Made by a program: the position numbers and the translations under genes. DNA of 20,500 nt from IMG/VR virus record IMGVR_UViG_2778261532_000014. One strand, written 5' to 3'. Shown piece by piece: positions 1 through 18,251 of this stretch; positions within the stretch are counted from its first letter, which is position 1, and each line of letters starts with the position of its first letter. Below the pieces are notes generated by a model. That model was not told the origin of the DNA. It was given only the letters and a program-made list of their open reading frames with translations, and did not search any database. The DNA is from a virus (lineage: Duplodnaviria; Heunggongvirae; Uroviricota; Caudoviricetes).

Positions 1-1224
1 ATGGCGCTGTCTGATGCGTGGTTGCGTTCAGTCGTTGGAAAGGAACGTGATAAGGTTTTGGTTAAATCCGATCGTGATGGTCTGTCTGTCAGAGTATCAC
101 CGAAAGGTCGCGTAGTGTTCCAATATCGTTATCAATGGGCAGGGAAAGGTGAGCGTCTTGATATCGGAACTTACCCGGCAACTGGATTAAAAGAGGCCAG
201 AGAAGAAGTTATCCGTCTCCGTGGTGAACTCGAGTCAAACCGTAATCCACGATTGGTCAAGCAGGCTGAAAAACGAAAAGCTACTGAAGCCATGACGGTA
301 GAGTCTGTGATCCGTGCCTGGTATGAAGCATATTGTGTAAAAAATAAAAAAGGCTCTGAACAGATACTCCGCTCGTTTGAGCTGCACCTGTTCTCTAAAA
401 TCGGAAATATCCCTCACGATGCAGCTACATTGCATGATTGGTTAGAAGTCCTGGAGCCTCTTAGCACCAAGACTCCAGCAATAGCAGACCGATTGCTAAT
501 TAACGCAAAGCAGGCCCATGTCTGGGCGTATAAGAGAAAGCTCATTGAAACTCGCCCGCTGTCGGATATCACGGGTAAAGATATGGATATCCGTAAAGGT
601 CAGAAGAAACGGTTTCTGACACATGATGAAATTAAAATCCTTTATGCTGCGATCGATGGTTCTCGAATGGTTCCTAAATACCGGGCCTTCATTAAACTAT
701 TGCTGCATTTTGGCTGCCGTAGTTCAGAGCTAATTACCGCCAGGGTGGACGATTTTGATTTCATTAATAAAGTATGGACTGTACCACCAGAACGACATAA
801 GATTGGGGAGATAACGGGCGAACCGCTAAAGCGGCCCATTATTGAACCGGTTGAAGAGCTTATAAAGTACGCTATTTCTATGAACAATGGTTCCGATATG
901 CTTTTTACTAAGGAAGGAAGCAGGGAACCCGTTGGTCGGACATCATTGCAGTCGCTGCCTTACAATTTAATGCAGTACGCATGGCGGCGTTTGGGGTATC
1001 AATTCCCTCATTGGTCTCTTCATGATTTGAGGCGAACAGCACGAACAAACTTTTCTGATCTTACTGCGCCTCATATTGCAGAAATAATGCTAGGTCATAA
1101 ACTGCCAGGGGTATGGCAAGTTTATGACAAGAGCGATTATCTAGAAGAACAGCGTAAAGCCTACCAGGCATGGTGGGAGAGGGTTGAATTGATAGTTGCT
1201 TGTATTAGCTCAGACCCCAACTGA
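1..1224 (+). CDS. Phage tyrosine integrase (P4/IntA-like site-specific recombinase)
   Basis: 407-aa ORF beginning at window position 1; N-terminal arm-binding-like region; C-terminal catalytic signatures (GCRSSEL Arg box, HDLRRT His-x-x-Arg box, Tyr near C-terminus). May lack a few N-terminal codons if the true start lies upstream of the window. Confidence 0.9.
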   Translation: MALSDAWLRSVVGKERDKVLVKSDRDGLSVRVSPKGRVVFQYRYQWAGKGERLDIGTYPATGLKEAREEVIRLRGELESNRNPRLVKQAEKRKATEAMTVESVIRAWYEAYCVKNKKGSEQILRSFELHLFSKIGNIPHDAATLHDWLEVLEPLSTKTPAIADRLLINAKQAHVWAYKRKLIETRPLSDITGKDMDIRKGQKKRFLTHDEIKILYAAIDGSRMVPKYRAFIKLLLHFGCRSSELITARVDDFDFINKVWTVPPERHKIGEITGEPLKRPIIEPVEELIKYAISMNNGSDMLFTKEGSREPVGRTSLQSLPYNLMQYAWRRLGYQFPHWSLHDLRRTARTNFSDLTAPHIAEIMLGHKLPGVWQVYDKSDYLEEQRKAYQAWWERVELIVACISSDPN

Positions 1225-1492
1225 CCGTTTGCATAGCTAGAACGAAATAAAATCTGACAGTCCGCTTTGAGCGACAACTAGACCTCAAAATATCTGTTGG
1301 ATAATGGGGACAAAATACAATTTAAAAAACATATGCTTAATAAGCAACTTATTTTGTTTAAATTTATGAAACACTCTCTAAATTATCTCTTATGATTTAA
1401 CATTCTTTCTCTATCACATGTGTAAAAATATGGTTAAAAATGTTAACCAAGATGCATTATTAATGTGTTGATTTTTAAGGTTGTTTTTGTTT

Positions 1493-1520
1493 GCGCCTTG
1501 AATGCAAGGCGCTATTTATC
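1493..1520 (+). terminator. Possible hairpin terminator downstream of int
   Basis: 8-bp stem gcgccttg/caaggcgc with 4-nt loop followed by TATTTAT; weak U-tract, abuts the stop of the minus-strand gene at 1519. Confidence 0.3.
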
Positions 1521-2013
1521 AAGATAGTCTATTCAGATCAGTATTAGGTGTGTTTCTTTTTGATGCAAAGATGGATTTGAATCTTTTTGAGTAACTATCA
1601 AAAAACCATTTTGTATAATTACCTTCAATTTCCTCTAATATTGAATACTTCATCTCATGAAGTTCATTTTTATAATCACACTTTTTGCTTAACAAGTCTA
1701 AAGGTGTTGATCTGATAGATGACAACTGTTCATCACATAATAATTTCTTACCAATCCTTTGTGATAAATGAGACAGCTGCATTTCAATTAATGAGACACT
1801 GGAGGCTAAAAAATTATCCAACTCTAATTCTTTAGTATCTCTAGAAGAGAGCTTATCTAAAACATTATCAAAAAGAGATTCTATTTGCTGACAGATTTTA
1901 TCCTTTTGCCTTGAAATATCATTTCGCTTGAATGCTCTATTGTTGAAATAAGACGCAACAAGCCAACCAATTATAGCAATTACAATACTTGTATAATTAA
2001 CCTCTTCCTGCAT
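1519..2013 (-). CDS. Hypothetical protein with one N-terminal transmembrane helix (third gene of cargo operon)
   Basis: ORF in frame; ATG at 2013 (GTG at 2016 also possible); hydrophobic segment YTSIVIAIIGWLVASYF then charged coiled-coil-like region; overlaps upstream gene by 17 nt, suggesting translational coupling; AT-rich codon usage unlike flanking phage genes. Confidence 0.6.
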   Translation of the reverse strand: MQEEVNYTSIVIAIIGWLVASYFNNRAFKRNDISRQKDKICQQIESLFDNVLDKLSSRDTKELELDNFLASSVSLIEMQLSHLSQRIGKKLLCDEQLSSIRSTPLDLLSKKCDYKNELHEMKYSILEEIEGNYTKWFFDSYSKRFKSIFASKRNTPNTDLNRLS

Positions 2014-2329
2014 CACTCTCTGCCTTATTCAATCGTTCATCAATCAAGGTCTCAATACTCTTAATATCTTTATGAGTATAAGTTAGTTTTTTCTTAAGTT
2101 CGCTTAATGTGTAGCCTTCTACTCGGATCAAGCCACCAAACGCTTCATCAATAAATGAACGCCCATAACGGTTATATCCAGTCAACTCAACATGAACTAA
2201 ATCATACTCTTTGAGAAAGCCTGCCAGATATTTGCGAAAGTTTTCCCCACAGCCTGCCCCATCGTCTGGATAGCGCCCGTAAGGCTTACTGTTGAAGTCT
2301 TTGATAACATTGATATTTTTAGTCTTCAT
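1997..2329 (-). CDS. STAS-like (DUF4325-type, anti-sigma-factor-antagonist-like) small protein
   Basis: 110-aa ORF; AAGG RBS upstream of ATG at 2329; overlaps upstream ATPase gene by 11 nt; sequence pattern (YGRYPDDG...SFIDEAFGGL) recalled as typical of DUF4325/STAS-like proteins that pair with GHKL ATPases. Family assignment from memory, not a search. Confidence 0.6.
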   Translation of the reverse strand: MKTKNINVIKDFNSKPYGRYPDDGAGCGENFRKYLAGFLKEYDLVHVELTGYNRYGRSFIDEAFGGLIRVEGYTLSELKKKLTYTHKDIKSIETLIDERLNKAESDAGRG

Positions 2330-3428
2330 AGCTGACCTTGATGTTCCACTGAATTAAAGTACCTGGTACTTTATGAGTTAACTCATTAATTTTATCACCT
2401 TTCTTATTAGAAAGCTTGAACATACCTAAATTACTGTAAATCCAAAGATTTCCATGTTCATTATTTAGTACTAGAGCTTTAATACTCTTACTTCCTTGAC
2501 CATGTTTATCATTGGCTGTACCGGTTACGTCTCCAATCATAGAAATTGCTATTTTTACTGCATCAGAAACAATACCTACTTTTACTTTAGAGCGCTCTTT
2601 ATAACCTAAACCTATTCTCTCAAGTTCTTCGTTAACCGCAACCTTTAGATCTGGATATTTTGATTTGAGCGTACTCATAAACCATGTCTTTTGCATTACA
2701 GTTTCAGGTATACCAACACCTTCATCATATATAGCAAGATAAAGCTGGTCATGAATTACGTGACATGCAAGCCACCATCGTTTCTCATCATTATTTTTAT
2801 GCGGATAGGCGTGTAAACCAACATTATTTATTGCTTCCTGAACAGCATCTGCATATGTATGTTCTGTTTCAGGTTTCATCTTGTTTTTATAAATTTCTTT
2901 CTGGATGAAATCTATAATCTCATCTCTATATTCTCCTCCTACCCCGCTAATAATGGGCAAGTTTTCAACGTTTTCGAAGACAGGTTTTAATTTTTCGCCC
3001 CGACATAAGGCGACAAGACCTGAGTCTCTTAAAAGCTGATTAACTTTAAAATCTGTTGAAAATAATAATCTGTACGATAAACCTTTACGAATTGAAGTTT
3101 CAACACTGGCATAAAGTATTACTAATGCTGCCATTTTTATTGTTTTTGTATTTGTAAAATCTAAATATAATCTCTCATCAGGATTATATTTTATATTCCT
3201 GACGTGATTTATCGAGTGTAGAGAGTGCGCAAAAAAATTAGGCTTATCTGGTGAATATATTGAAAACTCAGATGGAAACCGAATAAAGGTATTATCTTTT
3301 TTCTTTTGAGATTTTTTTTGTTGACGAAACTGCGAATACTCTTTCCCTTGACGGGAAACACTTCGCTGCCATCTTTTAAAAGCCAGCCTAATTCTTACAC
3401 TTTTTTCCTTATTGGCCTTGTTTTCCAT
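2319..3428 (-). CDS. GHKL-superfamily ATPase / anti-sigma-factor-type Ser kinase-like protein with ~180-aa unknown N-terminal domain
   Basis: 369-aa ORF; AGGGGA RBS; Bergerat-fold motifs: N-box EAINNVGLHAY (SpoIIAB/RsbW-like E-x-x-N-x-x-x-H), G1 box DEGVGIP, G2-like GQGSKS; AT-rich. Confidence 0.8.
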   Translation of the reverse strand: MENKANKEKSVRIRLAFKRWQRSVSRQGKEYSQFRQQKKSQKKKDNTFIRFPSEFSIYSPDKPNFFAHSLHSINHVRNIKYNPDERLYLDFTNTKTIKMAALVILYASVETSIRKGLSYRLLFSTDFKVNQLLRDSGLVALCRGEKLKPVFENVENLPIISGVGGEYRDEIIDFIQKEIYKNKMKPETEHTYADAVQEAINNVGLHAYPHKNNDEKRWWLACHVIHDQLYLAIYDEGVGIPETVMQKTWFMSTLKSKYPDLKVAVNEELERIGLGYKERSKVKVGIVSDAVKIAISMIGDVTGTANDKHGQGSKSIKALVLNNEHGNLWIYSNLGMFKLSNKKGDKINELTHKVPGTLIQWNIKVSYED

Positions 3429-4206
3429 GTGTCCCCTATCAATATGCTGTTCTTTTCATACTACGAATGATAGTACAATTAAACCAAGATTGGTATACAG
3501 ACCACCCGTCGTCCAGCACAAAAATTTTGTTGGTGGTGAGGTTGAAAAACGCAGTTAAATCATATAGATATGGTTTCTTGAGTATAAAAATACCGTTCTT
3601 AGCCATGCTCAAGAACGGCTTGGTTTTGTTGTTGATAAAAATACTAAAGCTTTAACGAGTCTTAAATCAATATTGAAATAACAAAATCAAATTAATTAAC
3701 AAGAGGTTTATCATTGAAAAAATATAACCCAAGAAAAATCATTAATTTTGAGTTCCAATTAATACAAAATACAACTTAATAATGCTCATGAATATATTAA
3801 ATCATTAATGCAGATAGTATTATTACCGAATAGGAACACAGCAACTTAGCTTATTCTGCCCTATTTATACCACTGCTCCTGACCTTGTGTGGTAGCAGGA
3901 GCATCAGACCAGTCACGATTCTTGGGTTGCTGACTTGGGGCACGATCATTACTTGATACATTCTACTTTTCTTCCTTGAGAACCTTAATATTTCCATATG
4001 TCGCTACTTTACACTCCTGCTTTCAGGCCTACATTCATACGGGGTTCAGCGTGCTTTAAACTATACTTCGCTTACCATTAAAATATTGTATTTCTTAGTA
4101 TCAGCCGATGACTTTACCCTTTTGGGGCTCGGGACATTTTCTCTTGTATATTTCAGGAAAATATTAAATAACCATTTATCCATATAGTGATGTCAACTAA
4201 TAGCTA

Positions 4207-4401
4207 CTACTCAATAATTCCAGCAAATCTGTATATCTTGTGTGATGCCCATTTATTTGGGCAGGATTTAATATCCGGATCTGGAAAGTCAGGCCTGTAT
4301 TTCTGGCCCGTTCTCCTGTTTACACTGTTCCAGCGAAGAACAGTCGATACTGAAACGCCACAGAATTCGGCAACTTGTTTTGTTGTCATTAAGTTGTTCA
4401 T
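4207..4401 (-). CDS. Excisionase-family HTH DNA-binding protein (Xis/AlpA-like)
   Basis: 64-aa ORF; strong AGGAGG RBS; MTTKQVAEFCGVSVSTVLRW helix-turn-helix typical of excisionase/AlpA-type regulators; last gene of leftward operon on the integrase side. Confidence 0.8.
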   Translation of the reverse strand: MNNLMTTKQVAEFCGVSVSTVLRWNSVNRRTGQKYRPDFPDPDIKSCPNKWASHKIYRFAGIIE

Positions 4402-5180
4402 TACTTCACCTCCTGCGGCGGCTCCGGTAGCGGTATCCAGTGGGTTACTTTCGATGCCGGTTCTTCCCCATCGTCAGTAACTGCCCACCATTTGTTTCTC
4501 GACCAATCGTAATACCCTTCGAAGGTATCGCACTCAGTCCAGCCGTAAGACTTCCCCCAACACCAAACATACTGTTTATCATTCGGCATTCGCTCACTAC
4601 AGCTTATCCAACCACCCGGACTTACCGGAGAGTTGCCAGACAGCGCGTTCTGCAGCCGTTCCAGCTTAACGTATTCCTGAACCCTGTTTCCGTCGCACAC
4701 CTGAAGCCATTGCGCAGCCTTTTGCGCATCAGTGTGAAAGGCACAAGTGCGACCGTCATCAAATTGCATTTCGTAGAGGTCAGCAACTTGTTCAAACTGC
4801 GTGTGTGGTGACTTGTAAGTTTGGTTTACAGGTTCGGCACCATGAAGCATGGCGGCGCGGCAGGCGTTCCAGCCTTCATCAAAACCGACTATGCCATTAT
4901 TTAAAGACGGACGAGCATCTGGCACTACCGGCACTGGCTTGGCTATATATAGCGGCTGAACATACCAGCTCTTTGATAACCAACTGTCAGCAATGTTTTT
5001 ACTCCTCGTTATTGCCGGAATACCTAAGCCATTTTCTGAATGCAGCCATGCCACCGGCTCCTCTTCTAGCGATGCCAGAGCAATTTCATAAGCACGGCGC
5101 TCAATATCGTCTCGAACCTCTAGGCTGCTGATTCGTTCTTTGATTTCTTTAATCAGTTCTTTGTCGGTAAACGTGATCAT
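4401..5180 (-). CDS. DUF551 domain phage protein (yfdT-like position)
   Basis: 259-aa ORF; GGAGG RBS; C-terminal W-rich DUF551-like segment (WISCSERMPNDKQ...THWIPLPEPP); stop overlaps next start. Confidence 0.75.
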   Translation of the reverse strand: MITFTDKELIKEIKERISSLEVRDDIERRAYEIALASLEEEPVAWLHSENGLGIPAITRSKNIADSWLSKSWYVQPLYIAKPVPVVPDARPSLNNGIVGFDEGWNACRAAMLHGAEPVNQTYKSPHTQFEQVADLYEMQFDDGRTCAFHTDAQKAAQWLQVCDGNRVQEYVKLERLQNALSGNSPVSPGGWISCSERMPNDKQYVWCWGKSYGWTECDTFEGYYDWSRNKWWAVTDDGEEPASKVTHWIPLPEPPQEVK

Positions 5181-7086: not shown

Positions 7087-7449
7087 TTAATGACCTGCTG
7101 CGCGAAGTTTTCCGTCAGGTTCACCGGCAAGAGTCAGTAATTGTCCCTGGTCTTCCTGCAGAATAGTCAGGCGCCCACCGCGATTGACATACATCGGCGT
7201 TTCGGTGGTGTCTTCTTCAGAAATTTTCCCGCGGTTAGTCGGGCGAACATATGAGAGTTTGTGTTTGATTTTCACACGGTTCTCATCAAACGGTTCGATT
7301 TCCAGGTTGAGCGAGACCTTACCTTTGGTTTTCGTGTTCATCACACCGGAAGCGACTTCACTGAGAACAGCGCCGATTTTGGTTTCAAATACGCCGCCGT
7401 CCAGCTCCCCGATAAATGCCTGCACATCAGTACTGCGTTCGCTAGCCAT
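7087..7449 (-). CDS. Hypothetical phage protein (yfdP-like position), 120 aa
   Basis: Start placed at ATG 7449 preceded by GGAGCAGGAAA RBS; the 197-aa upstream extension in the ORF track is Arg/Ser/Cys/Pro-rich and crosses a long inverted repeat, so judged non-coding. Confidence 0.7.
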   Translation of the reverse strand: MASERSTDVQAFIGELDGGVFETKIGAVLSEVASGVMNTKTKGKVSLNLEIEPFDENRVKIKHKLSYVRPTNRGKISEEDTTETPMYVNRGGRLTILQEDQGQLLTLAGEPDGKLRAAGH

Positions 7450-7497
7450 TTTCCTGCTCCTCATCATATCGACCCTGCAAGGCCGATTAGTTTCTCC

Positions 7498-7586
7498 ACA
7501 AAACAGAGAAGAACACCTGCGGTGACTGCCGCCCGGATGGATTGGGTTATGAGCCCGTCGTCCGGTGATGCTCTTCTCTGTTTTGT
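7498..7586. repeat. Long inverted repeat (15-bp perfect arms, 59-nt spacer)
   Basis: acaaaacagagaaga (7498-7512) pairs with tcttctctgttttgt (7572-7586); lies in the non-coding tract between the leftward operon and cI. Confidence 0.5.
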
Positions 7587-8045
7587 AAAAAGAGCGGTAC
7601 CAGCTGGAAGCAAGGGTACAAACTGGTACCGCCAAAGCAGTGGCTGTTGTGGTGGGGTTGTCACTCAGGCGTATGGTCAACCTGACAATCCGGTGTCCTC
7701 AACGGGGAAAGAGTAACCCCGCCATACTTACCGCCGCGCCATTTCGCGGATTACCACAACGCTGAGAGCACTTAGCCAGTTACGGCACCACACTTTGTCG
7801 CGGCTCCATAAATGCCCTCATCGTTGCACCCTGGTCTCTTCCCAGGCGTCAAACCGAATCGCCACGCTGGTTAGGCGTCTTATCAGCATCATCATTGACT
7901 TGCACATTCCGGCTACCTGGTTTGTTTGCCCGAGCAAGGAGTGGATTGTCCCCTTTAACGTCACCAGACCGCTAACGACGCATGTGCCATACGCCGTGTT
8001 ACAACCAAATTTTGTTTTAATCTTGCCTGTGTCATGTTTCTTTTG

Positions 8046-9678: not shown

Positions 9679-10511
9679 ACAGTTTAACGGCAAATAACCG
9701 TTTGTCGCAACAGCTGGTGGTCAGTGTCGCTGAACACCTGTTGTTACGGCATGAATGCAGATTACCAAATCACCTGGCTGTAAGTAACCACAGAGAACTT
9801 TACCTGACTGTGGGGGGCGAGTTGTGCAGGAACTTAACCGCTGGTTTCGTGACGGAAGAGGGCTTTATGTCCATGTTATTCGTTGGGAGCCAGAAACACA
9901 GCGCGTTATCTATCTTCGCAAAGACTACCCGCATGAGTGCTTTAGTCCTTTGTGGAAATTCAGGCGTGATTTTGTTGAGTGTGAAGGACCACCAGCACAT
10001 TGATTCTGCCATTCCGGGACGTTACACTGTTCAGGCACCTTATAAAGCGGGTGCCGGGATTGGCGTCCTGGAAATGTTATCGGCGATATATGACGCGCCA
10101 GCGTCTTTTTTATCGTCTGCGTCTGCGCACCCCCAAATTATGGTGGGCTGGACGGGGGCACCGAAAGGTGCGCCGGTTTCCGATAACGCCGGTTACGCCA
10201 ACCCCGTTCAGTTCACCACCAGCGAAATTGGCGTTTCCGGTGGTGAAGGTAATTCACTGTTATCGGAGGCTGTCATCATGGCTACTGTCCCAGCCCTCAC
10301 TCGTCTGAATGATGAAGACTTACATAAACTCAGTTATGTAACAACTGCACTACGTGCTCTGCGCAAGGTAACTCTTTCGGATCCGCAGGCGCATCAGGTT
10401 CTGGTAGAAACCCTTCTTAACTTGCAGGCTGAACGTATTCGTCTGGCGGATAAGGCTAATTTTCATATTCACCGTCTCCTGAATATCAGCGGAGGGCATC
10501 GTCATGCTTAA
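9675..10511 (+). CDS. Hypothetical protein(s); reading frame ambiguous in the first third
   Basis: 278-aa open frame with ATGA and ATGCTTAA overlaps at both ends; region 10010-10511 has clear coding periodicity; a protein-like alternative frame exists at 9788-10003 next to a G6 run (see findings). Confidence 0.45.
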   Translation: MNSLTANNRLSQQLVVSVAEHLLLRHECRLPNHLAVSNHRELYLTVGGELCRNLTAGFVTEEGFMSMLFVGSQKHSALSIFAKTTRMSALVLCGNSGVILLSVKDHQHIDSAIPGRYTVQAPYKAGAGIGVLEMLSAIYDAPASFLSSASAHPQIMVGWTGAPKGAPVSDNAGYANPVQFTTSEIGVSGGEGNSLLSEAVIMATVPALTRLNDEDLHKLSYVTTALRALRKVTLSDPQAHQVLVETLLNLQAERIRLADKANFHIHRLLNISGGHRHA

Positions 10512-14589: not shown

Positions 14590-14952
14590 ATGCGTGATAT
14601 TCAAATGGTTCTGGATCGTTGGGGAGCATGGGCGGCGAGTGATAGTTCAGGAGTAGACTATTCTCCTATAGCTGCTGGGTTTAAAGGGCTTCTTCCCTAT
14701 ACAAGCAAAACACGTCAGGCTTGTTCAGATAGTGATGCATTAATTATTGAAGGTTGTCTTGCTCTTCTTAAAAAGCGAAAACCGTACGAGCATTCTTTGA
14801 TTGTGGCCCATTACCTGTATGGCATCTCGAAAAGAAAGCTTGCAAGAGCTCGCAAAAAAGATGAGAAATTGATACGTATAGAGATACAGATGGCTGAAGG
14901 GTTTATTGATGGATGCCTTTCAATGCTGGATGTTAAACTTGAAATGGAGTAG
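14590..14952 (+). CDS. Late-gene antitermination protein Q (QuuD/Q82-like family)
   Basis: 120 aa from ATG 14590 with GGAG RBS; MRDIQMVLDRWGAWAA N-terminus and overall pattern match DLP12 QuuD-type Q proteins as recalled. Confidence 0.85.
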   Translation: MRDIQMVLDRWGAWAASDSSGVDYSPIAAGFKGLLPYTSKTRQACSDSDALIIEGCLALLKKRKPYEHSLIVAHYLYGISKRKLARARKKDEKLIRIEIQMAEGFIDGCLSMLDVKLEME

Positions 14953-14980
14953 AAAAAAGGGCATTTCTGCCCTTTTTAAA
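14953..14980. terminator. Bidirectional Rho-independent terminator between Q and the convergent cassette
   Basis: Hairpin gggca-tttc-tgccc flanked by A6 upstream and T5 downstream; serves the stop of Q (14952) and the stop of the minus-strand gene (14976). Confidence 0.7.
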
Positions 14981-15419
14981 TGTGGGGGAGTATCCAGTTT
15001 ACTTTTCTCCATGTAAAGGCAAAAGTTATTACTGAAATGATAAGAAGAGATAAAGATTCGATAATTAAAATAAATTCTATTTTTTCTCCATGTAACAATG
15101 TCTTTTCATTGGCAAACATTGCTATCAAAGCAATAACGCATGCCGTAATTAAAGATGCACCTGCGGTTAATAGATTTACAATAATAACTTGAAGTATGTT
15201 GTTGTTTTTTAATGCTTTTATTATTCCATTTGAGTTTTCGCTAGCAGCACTAAAAATTGATTTTGTGGCTAAAATAAAACCAAATAAAATACCGGATACA
15301 GTTGAAATAACCCCGGAGGCTGTAAGTATGTCAGCATGCCCCATCTGAGGGATATACCTCAGTAGGAACAAGGTGCAAAAAACACTTACAATCAGGTTTC
15401 TTAAGTATTTCAATAACAT
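14976..15419 (-). CDS. Four-TM small membrane protein (RexB-like candidate effector)
   Basis: 147-aa ORF with four predicted hydrophobic helices; 3-nt gap to upstream gene; very AT-rich. Confidence 0.7.
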   Translation of the reverse strand: MLLKYLRNLIVSVFCTLFLLRYIPQMGHADILTASGVISTVSGILFGFILATKSIFSAASENSNGIIKALKNNNILQVIIVNLLTAGASLITACVIALIAMFANEKTLLHGEKIEFILIIESLSLLIISVITFAFTWRKVNWILPHI

Positions 15420-15422
15420 ATC

Positions 15423-16364
15423 CTATACCTTCTTTTTGCTGATATCGTATTGCTTAAGGTATTCATTGTTATCAATTTTAGCAGAAATCATGGCTTGCAG
15501 AACATCACTATCAGTGCCATAACCATTAACGGTATATATGTTTTTTTCTGAAATGAGTACCTGATCAAGAAGACTTTGTTCAACGGTATTTTTGGGCTGT
15601 GTTACTGCCGCTTTTTTTACAATTCCCGGCATTTTTTCAAGGAGTTCTTTAATACCATCCTTAACGAGATCTGATAAATAACCTTTGACTTTTACTCTCC
15701 CTGATGCACGTCCCCTTAGATTTAACTTGAGACGTGTTCCACCCAGCCCTACCATCATATTTACCAGTTCCTTAGAAAATGAACTATTTAGCTGGTAATT
15801 TGTTGCATCAAAGTTCCTGGGAGCAGCCAGGACAATATCACAACTTCTCAAAGTACTTCCTGTTTCAAGTAGCTCTTTGACGCTCTCTTTTTTCCAGATG
15901 GCTTGGAATGAAAAGTTATTTCCAGGATTACCACTCTGGCTGTAAAGCAGATAAGCTAAATCCGATTCTTTCGGCCCAAGATGATTTTGAGTTAATATTA
16001 AAATATCACTATCGTAATAATATAAAAAATAGGTTCTTTCGACTATGTATTTTTTATCATCTAGTGGTATGTTGTGCTCATTCCAGTGTTCATCACCAAT
16101 ATAAGGAAGGAGATACTCTTCTCGTGAGCATGACATGTAGCCGAAGAAATATTTAGCTTTTGTATCTTTATTTATAAAAGCTATTTTTAACTTTTTATTT
16201 CTATAGATGGTATCAAAATGATTATTCGTAACGGTTACGCAAGTATTATACAGATTTTCAATTGCTTGCTTAGCAACTGAATGGCTGCGGATAGTCCCAG
16301 AACTGCTGGTGTAAAAACCAATTTTAAGTTTTTTTTGTTTCTTTGATTGCGCAATAGTAGCCAT
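15423..16364 (-). CDS. Hypothetical 313-aa cytoplasmic protein (candidate sensor partner of the 4-TM protein)
   Basis: AAGG RBS 7 nt upstream of ATG at 16364; Lys/Asn/Tyr-rich AT-rich composition; no motif I can assign. Confidence 0.7.
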   Translation of the reverse strand: MATIAQSKKQKKLKIGFYTSSSGTIRSHSVAKQAIENLYNTCVTVTNNHFDTIYRNKKLKIAFINKDTKAKYFFGYMSCSREEYLLPYIGDEHWNEHNIPLDDKKYIVERTYFLYYYDSDILILTQNHLGPKESDLAYLLYSQSGNPGNNFSFQAIWKKESVKELLETGSTLRSCDIVLAAPRNFDATNYQLNSSFSKELVNMMVGLGGTRLKLNLRGRASGRVKVKGYLSDLVKDGIKELLEKMPGIVKKAAVTQPKNTVEQSLLDQVLISEKNIYTVNGYGTDSDVLQAMISAKIDNNEYLKQYDISKKKV

Positions 16365-16497
16365 GTTAAACCTTAGTATACTAATAATTTCTTATGGATC
16401 TTATTTTTTATATGGCTTTAATTTAGCAAAAAAAAATTACCGCGGTCCGCAAATTTTATCTTAATCTGTTAAGAGTGGTTACTTCGCCACACAGCTT

Positions 16498-16521
16498 AAA
16501 CCCGCCGTCGAGCGGTTTTTT
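16498..16521 (+). terminator. Possible plus-strand terminator-like hairpin
   Basis: acccgc-cgtcga-gcggtt stem-loop followed by TTTTTT; no annotated plus-strand gene ends here, so the terminated transcript is unknown. Confidence 0.35.
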
Positions 16522-16619
16522 GTACCTGTAAACCTGGTGCAGTACAGTAAACACGCTGGTGGTCGTGAATACTGACTTTTTATCTTGCTGGCTTTTTAGA
16601 CAAGAGTTATTGGTATGTC

Positions 16620-18096: not shown

Positions 18097-18172
18097 GGCC
18101 CTTTAGCTCAGTGGTTAGAGCGAGCGACTCATAATCGCCAGGTCGCTGGTTCAAATCCAGCAAGGGCCACCA
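18097..18172 (+). tRNA. tRNA-Ile2 (anticodon CAU; ileX/ileZ-like; Met not excluded)
   Basis: 76 nt; perfect 7-bp acceptor stem, D-arm GCTC/GAGC, anticodon loop CTCATAA, T-arm GCTGG-TTCAAAT-CCAGC, encoded CCA; close to E. coli ileX as recalled. Confidence 0.85.
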
Positions 18173-18174
18173 TT

Positions 18175-18251
18175 CCGCCACCAGCTCATCTGGATAGAGC
18201 ATCAGCCTTCTAAGTTGATTGTGCGAGGTTCGAGCACCCGGTGGCGGACCA
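18175..18251 (+). tRNA. tRNA-Arg (anticodon UCU, AGA-decoding) with imperfect T-stem
   Basis: 77 nt; perfect acceptor stem CCGCCAC/GTGGCGG, canonical D-arm, anticodon loop CTTCTAA, encoded CCA; T-stem has two mismatches including position 53-61. Confidence 0.6.

Follow-up and report, generated by a model that had tools for sequence, protein, structure and literature searches.

A three-gene cassette beside the integrase of a lambdoid-type prophage is probably a variant of the VapK/VapS phage-defence switch, in which a small membrane protein replaces the nuclease toxin. The three overlapping ORFs, here called A, B and C, fill positions 1519-3428 on the minus strand of the window (the whole 20,500-nt stretch of DNA analysed, with its ORF listing). 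By analogy with studied relatives, the cassette would be a self-contained mobile module of the CapK/VapK family, consisting of a kinase, a STAS adaptor and an effector, and carried as lysogen-expressed cargo (a moron). A probability of about 0.5 is assigned to this reading.

The cassette is sited between the integrase and the leftward early genes (Table 1), which beyond the Xis/AlpA-like gene include DUF551 and yfdR/Q/P. An earlier note had described three overlapping minus-strand genes in this place, and the ORFs and their overlaps agree with it. The stop of A and the start of B share 11 nt (ATGAAGACTAA), and B overlaps C by 17 nt when C is read from its ATG, or by 20 nt when it is read from an alternative GTG (1519-2016, 165 aa); the ATG at 2013 is preferred, on the strength of RefSeq and an SD-like GAGAG. 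The GC content is 0.30-0.385 over positions 1200-4200, whereas the integrase has 0.44-0.47 and the early genes 0.46-0.52; the cassette lies about 12-20 points under its flanks. The same bias is found in 97/97 related loci, with a mean gap of 11 points, in line with the proposal that these genes are low-GC cargo.

Table 1. Features of the cassette and its surroundings (window coordinates).
Feature	Position	Strand	Basis or remark
Gene A	2319..3428	-	ORF, 369 aa
A residues 1-45, strongly basic helix, 16 K/R, pI 11	3294..3428	-	AF2 helix 2-26
A residues 46-184, STAS domain	2877..3293	-	
A residues 185-369, RsbW/SpoIIAB-type GHKL ATP-binding kinase domain	2322..2876	-	
Gene B	1997..2329	-	ORF, 110 aa
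B Ser58 codon	2156..2158	-	serine in LxG-x6-S-F-x-D-E-A-F-G-G-L core
Gene C	1519..2013	-	ATG start at 2013, 164 aa
C residues about 8-24, transmembrane helix ending in invariant Trp17	1942..1992	-	hydropathy and alignments
Terminator-like hairpin, 10-bp stem then T-run	3592..3619	-	consensus scan
Sigma-70 promoter-like site TTTATA-18-TATGAT	3559..3588	-	9/12 consensus matches
Perfectly palindromic GC-rich hairpin GCGCCTTGAATGCAAGGCGC	1493..1512	.	sequence scan
Integrase, P4-type tyrosine (context, outside the system)	1..1224	+	Pfam Arm-DNA-bind_3 / Phage_int_M / Phage_integrase
Xis/AlpA-like HTH	4207-4401	leftward	early gene on far side of cassette

Several candidate signals frame the three genes. 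The promoter-like site precedes the A start codon by about 130 nt and is a candidate for the cassette's own promoter, being a consensus match and not functional evidence. The hairpin at 3592..3619, a candidate terminator, would shield the cassette from read-through of the leftward early operon; it is suggestive by position only, since such sites in the region are not above shuffle expectation. The palindromic hairpin on the other side begins 7 nt past the C stop codon and is a candidate bidirectional terminator separating the cassette from the convergent integrase gene. No RNA family of Rfam was found within or beside the cassette.

The product of gene A begins with a basic helix, followed by a STAS domain and a GHKL kinase domain of RsbW/SpoIIAB type, as judged from an AF2 model (pLDDT 79, pTM 0.76) and structure comparison. 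The first ~180 aa, which the earlier note had left unassigned, are thus the basic helix plus a second STAS domain. The N-terminus carries 11-18 K/R in every family member; residues 1-45, a single basic helix in the AF2 model, match no HTH of Pfam and occupy the place held by the HTH domain in CapK. The STAS domain has Ala, Val or Met (Ala in the window protein) where SpoIIAA has its phospho-serine. Its Y58 is invariant and an aromatic residue (F/Y) at 66 is conserved; a WW pair is also invariant in A. The kinase residues are E198 and N202, D235xGxG239, H309GQGSKS and G356T357. An anti-sigma-kinase-type N-box with G1 and G2 boxes had been recognised before, and the boxes EAINNVGLHAY (E198, N202), YDEGVGIP (D235, G237, G239) and KHGQGSKS (H309-S315) proved invariant in 22 homologues. 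By these motifs the N, G1 and G2 boxes are intact and the ATP site is complete.

The HMM support for the kinase is weak: the HATPase_c hit that the earlier note had looked to did not appear above threshold, A scoring 16.1 and 14.6 bits against Pfam HATPase_c and HATPase_c_2 (gathering thresholds 27.4 and 26.4; E 0.011 for HATPase_c_2), and the NCBIfam models RsbW (2e-6) and SpoIIAB (5e-5) did match, both over aa 195-246 only. The assignment of the GHKL fold rests on structure and motifs instead. The best structural matches are SpoIIAB, RsbW and UsfX, together with the fold of the partners SpoIIAA and RsbV, and a PDB sequence search with the A profile returned the N/G1 segment of SpoIIAB only. 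A matches phrog_3364 at 1.4e-55. Its family comprises 2469 cluster representatives (50% identity) at E<=1e-3, all of about 330-390 aa, and 1482 at E<=1e-10.

Such matches raise the reading that the cassette manipulates the host by classical partner switching, in which A would be an anti-sigma factor that sequesters a sigma factor of host or phage, and B would antagonise A. A is indeed a GHKL serine kinase type with N, G1 and G2 boxes, like SpoIIAB and RsbW, and both its closest structures and its NCBIfam models come from that group. Unlike SpoIIAB-SpoIIAA, RsbW-RsbV and the fused multidomain Rv1364c, however, the STAS domain of A precedes the kinase and has no phospho-serine, a DUF4325 protein serves as partner, and the cassette is mobile-element cargo of Gammaproteobacteria. 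Neither a sigma factor nor a PP2C phosphatase is encoded, as it is in those systems, within the cassette or among its window neighbours, and no such gene is a recurrent neighbour across the Pfam-annotated loci, the other loci having been surveyed for A, B and C only. The sole Sigma70-family match is the chromosomal rpoS, which in four mutS-side loci of P. aeruginosa (L023, L025, L027 and L028) lies 3.6 kb upstream. The host taxa are not known to have SigB/SigF-type regulons, and the studied homologues VapKSC and CapK/CapS do not act on sigma factors. Sigma-factor switching is therefore rated very unlikely; of the partner-switching pair proposed earlier, the kinase and its STAS-like partner stand and the classical sigma-factor part does not.

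Gene B passes Pfam PF14213 (DUF4325) with 28.8 bits vs a gathering threshold of 23, and all 24 members of its family match DUF4325 (best 9.4e-17), in agreement with the earlier description of the second product as DUF4325/STAS-like. Among the three genes it shows the highest conservation, with 45-65% identity across orders. The mean column identity is 55% for B vs 23% for C, a contrast not expected of a simple toxin-antitoxin pair that co-evolves. A PDB sequence search with the B profile found no relative. When compared with SpoIIAA and RsbV by hhalign, B aligned over alpha1-beta3 only (E 0.07). No similarity between the A STAS domain and B was found by hhalign, so the two are not close paralogues.

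Ser58 of B is invariant in 24/24 sequences. In alignments to the B HMM, which are statistically weak, it falls exactly on CapS S54 and one residue after VapS S48, and it is a candidate phospho-acceptor. An alignment by eye had pointed to E62/A63 as the phospho-site; this was dropped, as the HMM alignments to CapS and VapS put S58 there. The short C-terminal helix of B is also conserved (H86, S91, R99, A103).

Gene C encodes a single N-terminal TM helix and a predicted cytoplasmic four-helix bundle, from hydropathy and an AF2 model (pLDDT 80) built on a 5-sequence alignment; the one hydrophobic helix near aa 8-24 upholds the description of the third product as a single-pass membrane protein. 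A basic juxtamembrane motif, R-x-x-R-x-[ED]-x-S-[KR]-x-K-D, is conserved after the TM helix. Ahead of the helix, 7 residues include 2 acidic and 0 basic ones; the 20 residues that come after it include 6 basic ones, a charge distribution that points to an N-out/C-in topology. A fold search with the C model returned generic helical bundles only. C has no PIN match in Pfam and no HMM similarity to VapC. In a comparison with holins, C matched phrog_4237 (E 7e-4) over residues 6-40 only, and the gene lies outside the lysis region. C is the candidate effector of the cassette.

The closest named relative is VapKSC, a toxin-antitoxin and anti-phage system (Chambers, Rani, Min, Villa & Corbett, EMBO J 2026; PMC13373217). 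In this system the kinase is the sensor and the third gene the effector; VapS is the antitoxin of VapC, and a phosphomimetic S48E change frees the toxin (PMC13373217). The vapKSC operon gives about 100-fold protection against phage Bas42, and it is mobile and often close to defence genes, with 289 loci reported (PMC13373217). Like VapKSC, the cassette is a three-gene operon that opens with the kinase, followed by the small STAS protein and then a third gene. A shares with VapK the STAS plus GHKL architecture without HTH and the same PHROG, VapK matching phrog_3364 at 4.9e-33; the A family and VapK are colinear over 264 columns by hhalign (E 0.0024), and the A profile gives VapK 8.7 bits, short of database-scale significance. 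B resembles VapS in being a DUF4325 protein of about 110-116 aa (VapS scores 62.7 bits, 2.7e-17, against PF14213) with a short C-terminal helix, and in having an absolutely conserved Ser at the start of STAS helix 2, offset by one residue; hhalign gives 82 colinear columns between the B family and VapS (E 0.01). By these profile comparisons, which for A are colinear over the full length of VapK and CapK, A is a homologue of both kinases, and B of VapS.

VapKSC and the cassette also differ. Where VapKSC has the PIN nuclease VapC, the third gene here encodes a 164-aa protein with a single-pass TM helix and a four-helix bundle; A exceeds VapK by about 70 aa and bears the basic N-terminal helix; and the A subfamily is separate and apparently larger, with 1482 cluster representatives (E<=1e-10) vs 289 vapKSC loci. 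Without the defining PIN toxin, the cassette is a variant of VapKSC and not a member. The earlier note could not match it to a named defence system; a named relative does exist. PADLOC-DB v2.0.0, including 3HP and the PDC candidates, has no model for the cassette: A and B gave no match, C gave only a spurious LeoBC match (E 0.014), and no PADLOC model recurs among 22 A homologues. The cassette was also considered as 3HP and rejected, 3HP being a P2-hotspot system without predicted domains (Rousset 2022) whose models give no match. The literature searched contained no experiment on the membrane-protein variant. The DefensePredictor unit "VPUS", a related set of three genes whose middle one is STAS-like, gave no protection against 24 phages. 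At 1871 bp it fits VapK, VapS and VapC (296 + 116 + 200 aa) better than A-B-C (1910 bp), and is kept as weak, indirect evidence and not as a negative test of the A-B-C family.

The second studied relative is CapK/CapS, which regulates CBASS, Bub, Thoeris and other operons, the capKS pairs controlling adjacent operons (PMC13373217). CapK is activated by ssDNA, and S54 of CapS is an experimentally proven phospho-site (PMC13373217). The A family aligns with CapK over 278 columns (hhalign, E 7e-4), colinear with CapK residues 48-362, and the two pairs share a STAS-GHKL kinase with a STAS substrate in which CapS S54 aligns with B S58. On a CapK/CapS-type model B would repress a promoter, A would relieve the repression after DNA damage, and neighbouring prophage genes would be regulated. 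The slightly better alignment of A to CapK than to VapK (E 7e-4 vs 0.0024) and the habit of capKS pairs of regulating adjacent operons speak for it. B, however, is 110 aa of DUF4325 only and lacks the C-terminal wHTH of CapS, a transcriptional repressor of 181 aa, and A lacks the N-terminal HTH of CapK. Furthermore, capKS lies upstream of an immune operon whereas the A-B-C cassette ends at a putative terminator; downstream of B there is only C, then the hairpin and the convergent integrase, and no regulable gene. Transcriptional control is accordingly rated very unlikely.

The cue sensed by the kinase may not be conserved. Activation by ssDNA involves a conserved aromatic residue between STAS and GHKL, W68 in CapK and F54 in VapK (PMC13373217). 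By hhalign, CapK W68 falls in an insertion relative to A, with the invariant Y58 and the conserved F/Y66 as candidates, and neither K237 nor K239 of the basic CapK hairpin is conserved in A. The equation of A Y58 with CapK W68 is unsupported by the profile alignment and was set aside. As no residues of A could be matched to the ssDNA contacts W68, K237 and K239 of CapK, its trigger may be another one. The kinase of this branch, which has a basic N-terminal helix where CapK has its HTH, the invariant WW pair and the invariant Y58, may read a cue other than ssDNA.

Across many Gammaproteobacteria, A, B and C travel as one translationally coupled unit, in prophages, P4 satellites and islands alike. 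Of the genome loci, 21/21 show the A-B-C order with junctions that overlap or abut, and about 62/64 viral contigs have the same order, which answers the question of three-gene co-conservation raised earlier. In 61 of the 64 contigs A is directly upstream of B, and nearly all have a C-like TM protein after B. The cassette sits at the edge of integrative elements, beside integrases. In Marinobacter phage AS1 it lies in the immunity region, downstream of a repressor-side gene, and in Francisella phage KIRK between cI and int. A DNA-level search of an isolated-phage collection did not find the cassette, and in a tblastn search phage AS1 was the only carrier. The window's integrase is present in 700/5426 complete E. 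coli genomes (about 13%) and the cassette in only 6. The integrase-adjacent slot is variable among E. coli genomes, holding a dCTP deaminase, an AIPR gene or a large HNH protein. Sister E. coli prophages thus carry known defence genes (anti-phage dCTP deaminase, AIPR) there, in accord with the idea of a prophage cargo slot.

A homologous triad occurs between int and psu of P4-like satellites in E. coli, a validated defence hotspot (Rousset 2022). Entry 69 of Table S1B, "HATPase_c | DUF4325", is this triad at P4 int-psu, catalogued but not among the systems cloned and tested, and DUF4325-containing gene sets are also listed in the P2 hotspot table (Rousset 2022). Entry 69 (WP_016234813/14/15) is of the same family as the window cassette, with three genes of 368 + 112 + 166 aa and identities of about 47-49% in A and 61% in B; it differs in residing in a P4-like satellite. 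The P. aeruginosa mutS-cinA site was considered as a core defence hotspot and dropped, being absent from those named in Johnson 2023.

The same distribution could suit a stress-responsive addiction module of toxin-antitoxin type, which would stabilise the prophage or island or modulate its induction following DNA damage, and have no dedicated anti-phage role. The cassette is always at the edge of an integrative element beside integrases, the related unit VPUS had no defence phenotype in one screen, and the paradigm kinase answers DNA damage generally, the VapKSC authors regarding the boundary between immunity and stress response as blurred (PMC13373217). This alternative is considered unlikely: bona fide defence genes (dCTP deaminase, AIPR) take the cassette's slot in other prophages, the cassette also sits in the P4 hotspot, vapKSC protects against a phage, and defence and addiction can coexist.

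The mobile kinase-adaptor-effector reading leads to the following model. In the resting lysogen, B would bind C through its STAS face and conserved C-terminal helix and keep it inactive. A cue from infection or DNA damage, ssDNA in the case of CapK and VapK, would switch on kinase A, whose basic N-terminal helix is a candidate nucleic-acid-binding element and whose STAS domain, with Ala at the phospho-site, would form the sensor's ligand-binding or autoinhibitory half rather than a substrate. A would then phosphorylate B at Ser58, and phospho-B would release C. The freed C would damage the inner membrane or stop growth, aborting the infection and protecting clonal lysogens. A kinase with a STAS partner acting as an anti-phage switch has experimental precedent in the homologues VapKSC and CapK/CapS, and anti-phage activity of the A-B-C variant is proposed on this analogy. 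A positional and functional analogue only is lambda RexAB, which is lysogen-expressed, lies beside the repressor or integrase, and pairs a cytoplasmic sensor with an inner-membrane protein. RexAB probably aborts infection via membrane depolarisation. It differs from the cassette in having no sequence or fold kinship with it, four TM helices in RexB and no kinase/STAS chemistry.

C might instead be no toxin but work at the membrane, blocking DNA entry (superinfection exclusion) or sensing membrane perturbation, with A and B tuning its activity or relaying its signal. C is membrane-anchored, and its predicted bundle resembles sensor or transducer bundles; the repressor-adjacent position in phages AS1 and KIRK is typical of sie and rex genes; and the far greater conservation of B than of C would be expected if C co-evolves with variable external partners. 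With C as the sensor, however, the cassette would be left without an output domain, as B has only a STAS fold and a short helix, and in the homologous VapKSC it is the kinase that senses and the third gene that acts. This scheme is regarded as improbable.

The cassette possibly represents, with somewhat less confidence than the module reading itself, a large unnamed branch of CapK/VapK-type phospho-signalling whose output is a small inner-membrane protein, and the first phosphorylation-gated membrane effector in defence or toxin-antitoxin systems. By cluster counts this branch may be commoner than VapKSC. If the proposed reading is true, the kinase-STAS switch of CapK and VapK would be a modular sensor open to coupling with unrelated outputs (a transcription factor, a PIN nuclease or a membrane protein), and the cassette would offer a genetically simple handle on the gating of a membrane effector by a STAS adaptor through phosphorylation. 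DUF4325 genes and the genes next to them, at present generically annotated ("ATP-binding protein", "hypothetical protein") in prophages of E. coli, Klebsiella, Pseudomonas, Vibrio, Haemophilus and other hosts, would gain a function, and defence-annotation tools a missing model. The integrase-adjacent slot of the yjjG-side E. coli prophage family, found in about 13% of complete genomes, would then be a small defence hotspot.

The cassette flagged in the earlier note is real, and its reading as a kinase, a STAS adaptor and a membrane protein was essentially right. The window, 100% identical to the E. coli EC416 chromosome (NZ_AP027404.1), starts with the integrase of a prophage of lambdoid type that sits next to yjjG. 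As that note described, three overlapping minus-strand genes (A, B and C) lie beside the integrase: 11 nt, ATGAAGACTAA, are common to the A stop and the B start, and B and C overlap by 17 nt. An alternative GTG start at 2016 would give C one codon more. These junctions, together with a purine-rich stretch 5' of each start codon, suggest that the three genes are translationally coupled. The low GC noticed for the cassette was borne out, at 0.30-0.385 across 1200-4200 vs 0.44-0.52 in both flanks. Terminator- and promoter-like sites are no more numerous than shuffling predicts, so only the positions of the flanking signals suggest an insulated "moron".

An AT-rich stretch of ~780 bp (3429-4206), containing the terminator-like hairpin and the promoter-like site, separates A from an Xis/AlpA-like gene. 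RefSeq places no gene there and Rfam finds no match; the only ORFs, of 40-97 aa, are mechanical and unannotated. The stretch is probably a recombination scar left by cargo exchange. At 4401-5180 (minus strand), the ORF scan gives a single intact ORF of 259 aa whose C terminus is DUF551-like, and RefSeq annotates two partial DUF551 pseudogene fragments in EC416 (4401-4640 and 5055-5180); either the gene is chimeric or this is an artefact of annotation. A second low-GC block (0.31-0.39) lies at about 14800-16600, just downstream of the Q antiterminator gene. Its two genes, neither matching PADLOC v2, may be a second moron or a candidate defence pair. The isrK and C4 RNAs form a P1/P7-type antisense immunity element (10035-10223) within the lambdoid-type prophage.

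Features of the window
Feature	Position	Strand	Remarks
Integrase	1-1224	plus	bounds A-B-C on one side, leftward early genes on the other
Perfect palindromic GC hairpin	1493-1512		7 bases past the C stop
C	1519-2013	minus	ORF, 164 aa from ATG, the RefSeq start
B	1997-2329	minus	ORF, 110 aa
A	2319-3428	minus	ORF, 369 aa
Promoter-like site	3588-3559		between the terminator-like hairpin and A
Terminator-like hairpin	3619-3592		upstream of A
isrK Hfq-binding RNA	10035-10111	plus	Rfam, 63.7 bits
C4 antisense RNA	10136-10223	plus	directly after isrK; Rfam, 82.8 bits
147-aa protein without family	14976-15419	minus	
313-aa DUF6731 protein	15423-16364	minus	Pfam 1.7e-10
Two adjacent phage-borne tRNA genes	18097-18248	plus	late region; Rfam, 72.7 and 32.3 bits, the second barely above threshold

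Protein A gave only sub-threshold matches to Pfam HATPase and short matches, at residues 195-246, to NCBIfam RsbW/SpoIIAB. With its family profile, residues 193-245 align to the SpoIIAB segment that holds the N and G1 boxes (residues 40-90). The anti-sigma-kinase-type N box and G1/G2 boxes claimed for A hold up: E198, N202, D235-x-G-x-G239, H309-G-Q-G-S-K-S and G356-T357 are invariant in 22 homologues covering Enterobacterales, Vibrionales, Pseudomonadales and Alteromonadales, and by these residues the ATP site is intact. The N-terminal domain reported with them is present but no longer unassigned; it is a STAS domain. The 45-residue helix in front of it is strongly basic family-wide (11-18 K/R). 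The position of the SpoIIAA phospho-serine is Ala/Val/Met in the A-family STAS, in a colinear but non-significant alignment, so this internal STAS would not be a canonical substrate. Also invariant in A are Y58 and the pair W218-W219, and position 66 keeps an aromatic residue. The family comprises 2469 representatives of 50%-identity clusters at E<=1e-3 (1482 at E<=1e-10), and the best 150 are all about 330-390 aa, without fusions.

The resemblance of B to STAS/DUF4325 proteins and the single-pass nature of C, both proposed earlier, were upheld. B and 24/24 homologues examined exceed the Pfam DUF4325 ("STAS-like") threshold, with a near-invariant core (L49-x-G-Y-N-R-Y-G-R-S58-F-x-D-E-A-F-G-G-L-x-R69) and a conserved C-terminal helix. 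C has one hydrophobic helix, at about residues 8-24, with an invariant W17 at its end; two acidic residues before it and a conserved basic juxtamembrane motif after it predict an N-out/C-in topology. Many non-enterobacterial C homologues have a second TM helix at the C terminus, and C has no recognisable toxic domain. Across orders, B is the most conserved (45-65% identity vs 33-51% for A and 18-48% for C). B is far more conserved than C, a poor fit to a simple toxin-antitoxin pair whose members co-evolve.

The three genes are co-conserved. In a degenerate-pattern scan with one genome per species, A was followed by B and then by a C-like protein in 21/21 loci, with overlapping or abutting junctions, in genera including Yersinia, Edwardsiella, Hafnia, Pseudomonas, Shewanella, Haemophilus, Aggregatibacter, Vibrio and Methylophaga. 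B occurs in 64 IMG/VR viral contigs, with A directly upstream in 61; of the remaining three, two are truncated by the contig end. In all but two contigs the product of the gene after B is 150-220 aa long and has an N-terminal TM helix and the basic juxtamembrane motif, even if its sequence no longer resembles C. Cassette GC is below that of the flanks in 97/97 loci, by a mean of 11 points. In Avibacterium gallinarum (L018, 7339-7883) a frameshift splits the C homologue into ORFs 7339-7590 and 7587-7883 beside intact A and B, which points to decay of this copy or to a sequencing error. In two IMG/VR loci, L094 (5980-7576) and L086 (515-1521), B-like DUF4325 genes with the same SFLDEAFGGL core lack an A-type kinase upstream and precede a 321-aa two-TM protein and a 199-aa Cys-rich protein, respectively, a hint of further partners for the STAS adaptor. 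B also matches the last 100 residues of the 441-residue profile phrog_5816 (5.2e-13), to which A has no match; since the match is confined to this C-terminal part, some phage proteins appear to carry DUF4325 fused behind a ~340-residue N-terminal part.

Full-text search for DUF4325, or for STAS in defence, gave almost nothing. One study describes both CapK/CapS and VapKSC (Chambers et al., EMBO J 2026; PMC13373217). CapK is an HTH-STAS-GHKL kinase that is activated by ssDNA and phosphorylates the repressor CapS at Ser54, on helix 2 of its STAS domain (PMC13373217). In the three-gene vapKSC operon, VapK, a STAS-GHKL protein without HTH, is the proposed kinase for VapS, a 116-aa STAS antitoxin against VapC, a PIN nuclease; VapC is set free by the phosphomimetic VapS S48E, and the operon protects about 100-fold against phage Bas42, an effect lost in kinase-site, serine and toxin mutants (PMC13373217). 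These sequences were taken from Appendix Table S2 of that paper by machine reading, with small errors possible. VapS matches DUF4325 at 2.7e-17, the same Pfam family as B, and phrog_3364 matches both VapK (4.9e-33) and A (1.4e-55). Both VapK (A 47-369 to VapK 8-286, 264 columns, 24% identity, E 0.0024) and CapK (A 43-368 to CapK 48-362, 278 columns, E 7e-4) give colinear alignments with the A-family profile, and VapS aligns with the B-family profile over 82 columns (E 0.01). In the B HMM, the invariant S58 falls exactly at CapS S54 and one residue after VapS S48. Counterparts in A of the CapK ssDNA-contact residues W68, K237 and K239 are not assignable; what A has instead are its basic N-terminal helix, Y58, the aromatic at 66 and W218-W219. 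By these alignments, A and B are homologues of the VapK/VapS family with a probability of about 0.9.

The third gene differs. C has no similarity to VapC, so the cassette joins the sensor kinase and STAS adaptor common to VapKSC with a membrane protein in place of the PIN toxin. It is not a VapKSC member, because the PIN toxin is absent, nor a CapKS regulator, because both DNA-binding domains are missing. CapKS-like transcriptional control by A and B is likewise unlikely, since B lacks a DNA-binding domain and no gene lies downstream to regulate. The cassette is an uncharacterised, though catalogued and widespread, variant of the VapKSC/CapKS kind, whose output is presumably the membrane protein. 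PADLOC v2 has no model for A, B or C, and in the literature searched no experiment on the version with a membrane protein came up. An E. coli three-gene unit, "VPUS" ("hypothetical, STAS-like domain-containing, hypothetical"; log-odds score 5.75), cloned in the DefensePredictor study, gave no protection against 24 phages; its proteins are WP_000060412.1, WP_001244589.1 and WP_000154254.1. Judged from its length (1871 bp), much closer to VapK + VapS + VapC (1845 bp coding) than to A-B-C (1910 bp), "VPUS" is probably a vapKSC operon.

The cassette recurs as cargo. P4-like satellites of other E. coli strains carry, in their int-psu interval, a triad 47-61% identical (WP_016234813/14/15); this interval is a hotspot and a reservoir of defence systems (Rousset et al. 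2022). This gene set is entry 69 of their Table S1B ("HATPase_c" with "DUF4325", 9 occurrences); their P2-hotspot table also has DUF4325-containing sets, and the entry-69 set is absent from the systems they tested. The P. aeruginosa copies of the triad stand either at a prophage end or next to an integrase fragment in the mutS-cinA interval. Marinobacter phage AS1, the sole isolated phage with the triad by tblastn, carries it in the immunity region, after the repressor-side gene and in divergent orientation to cro. In Francisella phage KIRK the genes between cI and int include those for a 293-aa protein, a DUF4325 protein and a TM protein. Classical sigma-factor partner switching is unlikely, because no sigma factor or PP2C gene lies beside the cassette in the contexts surveyed, except chromosomal rpoS at one P. 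aeruginosa site. Among complete E. coli genomes the window's integrase is present at the yjjG site in 700/5426, the cassette in only 6. Six sister prophages (L113-L118) have other genes between the integrase and the DUF551/yfdR early genes, differing among strains: one has an anti-phage dCTP deaminase, one an abortive-infection gene of the AIPR type accompanied by an IS element (ISVsa5), one an HNH protein of 868 aa, and the remaining three unrelated hypothetical proteins of 239-413 aa. With such genes alternating in it, the integrase-adjacent slot (1225-4200) looks like a small, undescribed defence hotspot. The cassette probably serves phage or mobile-element conflict.

The likeliest mechanism, proposed by analogy with VapKSC and rated somewhat below even odds, would have B keep C inactive at rest. 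An infection or DNA-damage cue would turn on A, which would phosphorylate Ser58 of B; phospho-B would then free C to damage the membrane or stop growth, aborting the infection. Established for this scheme are the homology of A and B, the intact ATP site of A and the B serine at or next to the phospho-site; a membrane protein is the constant third gene, in a cargo and hotspot context. C could instead possibly perform membrane-level exclusion or sensing, a reading that leaves the system without an output domain. A stress-responsive addiction module of A, B and C is compatible with every observation and would still leave room for defence. The kinase-STAS paradigm is already known; a phosphorylation-gated membrane effector would be new and directly testable.
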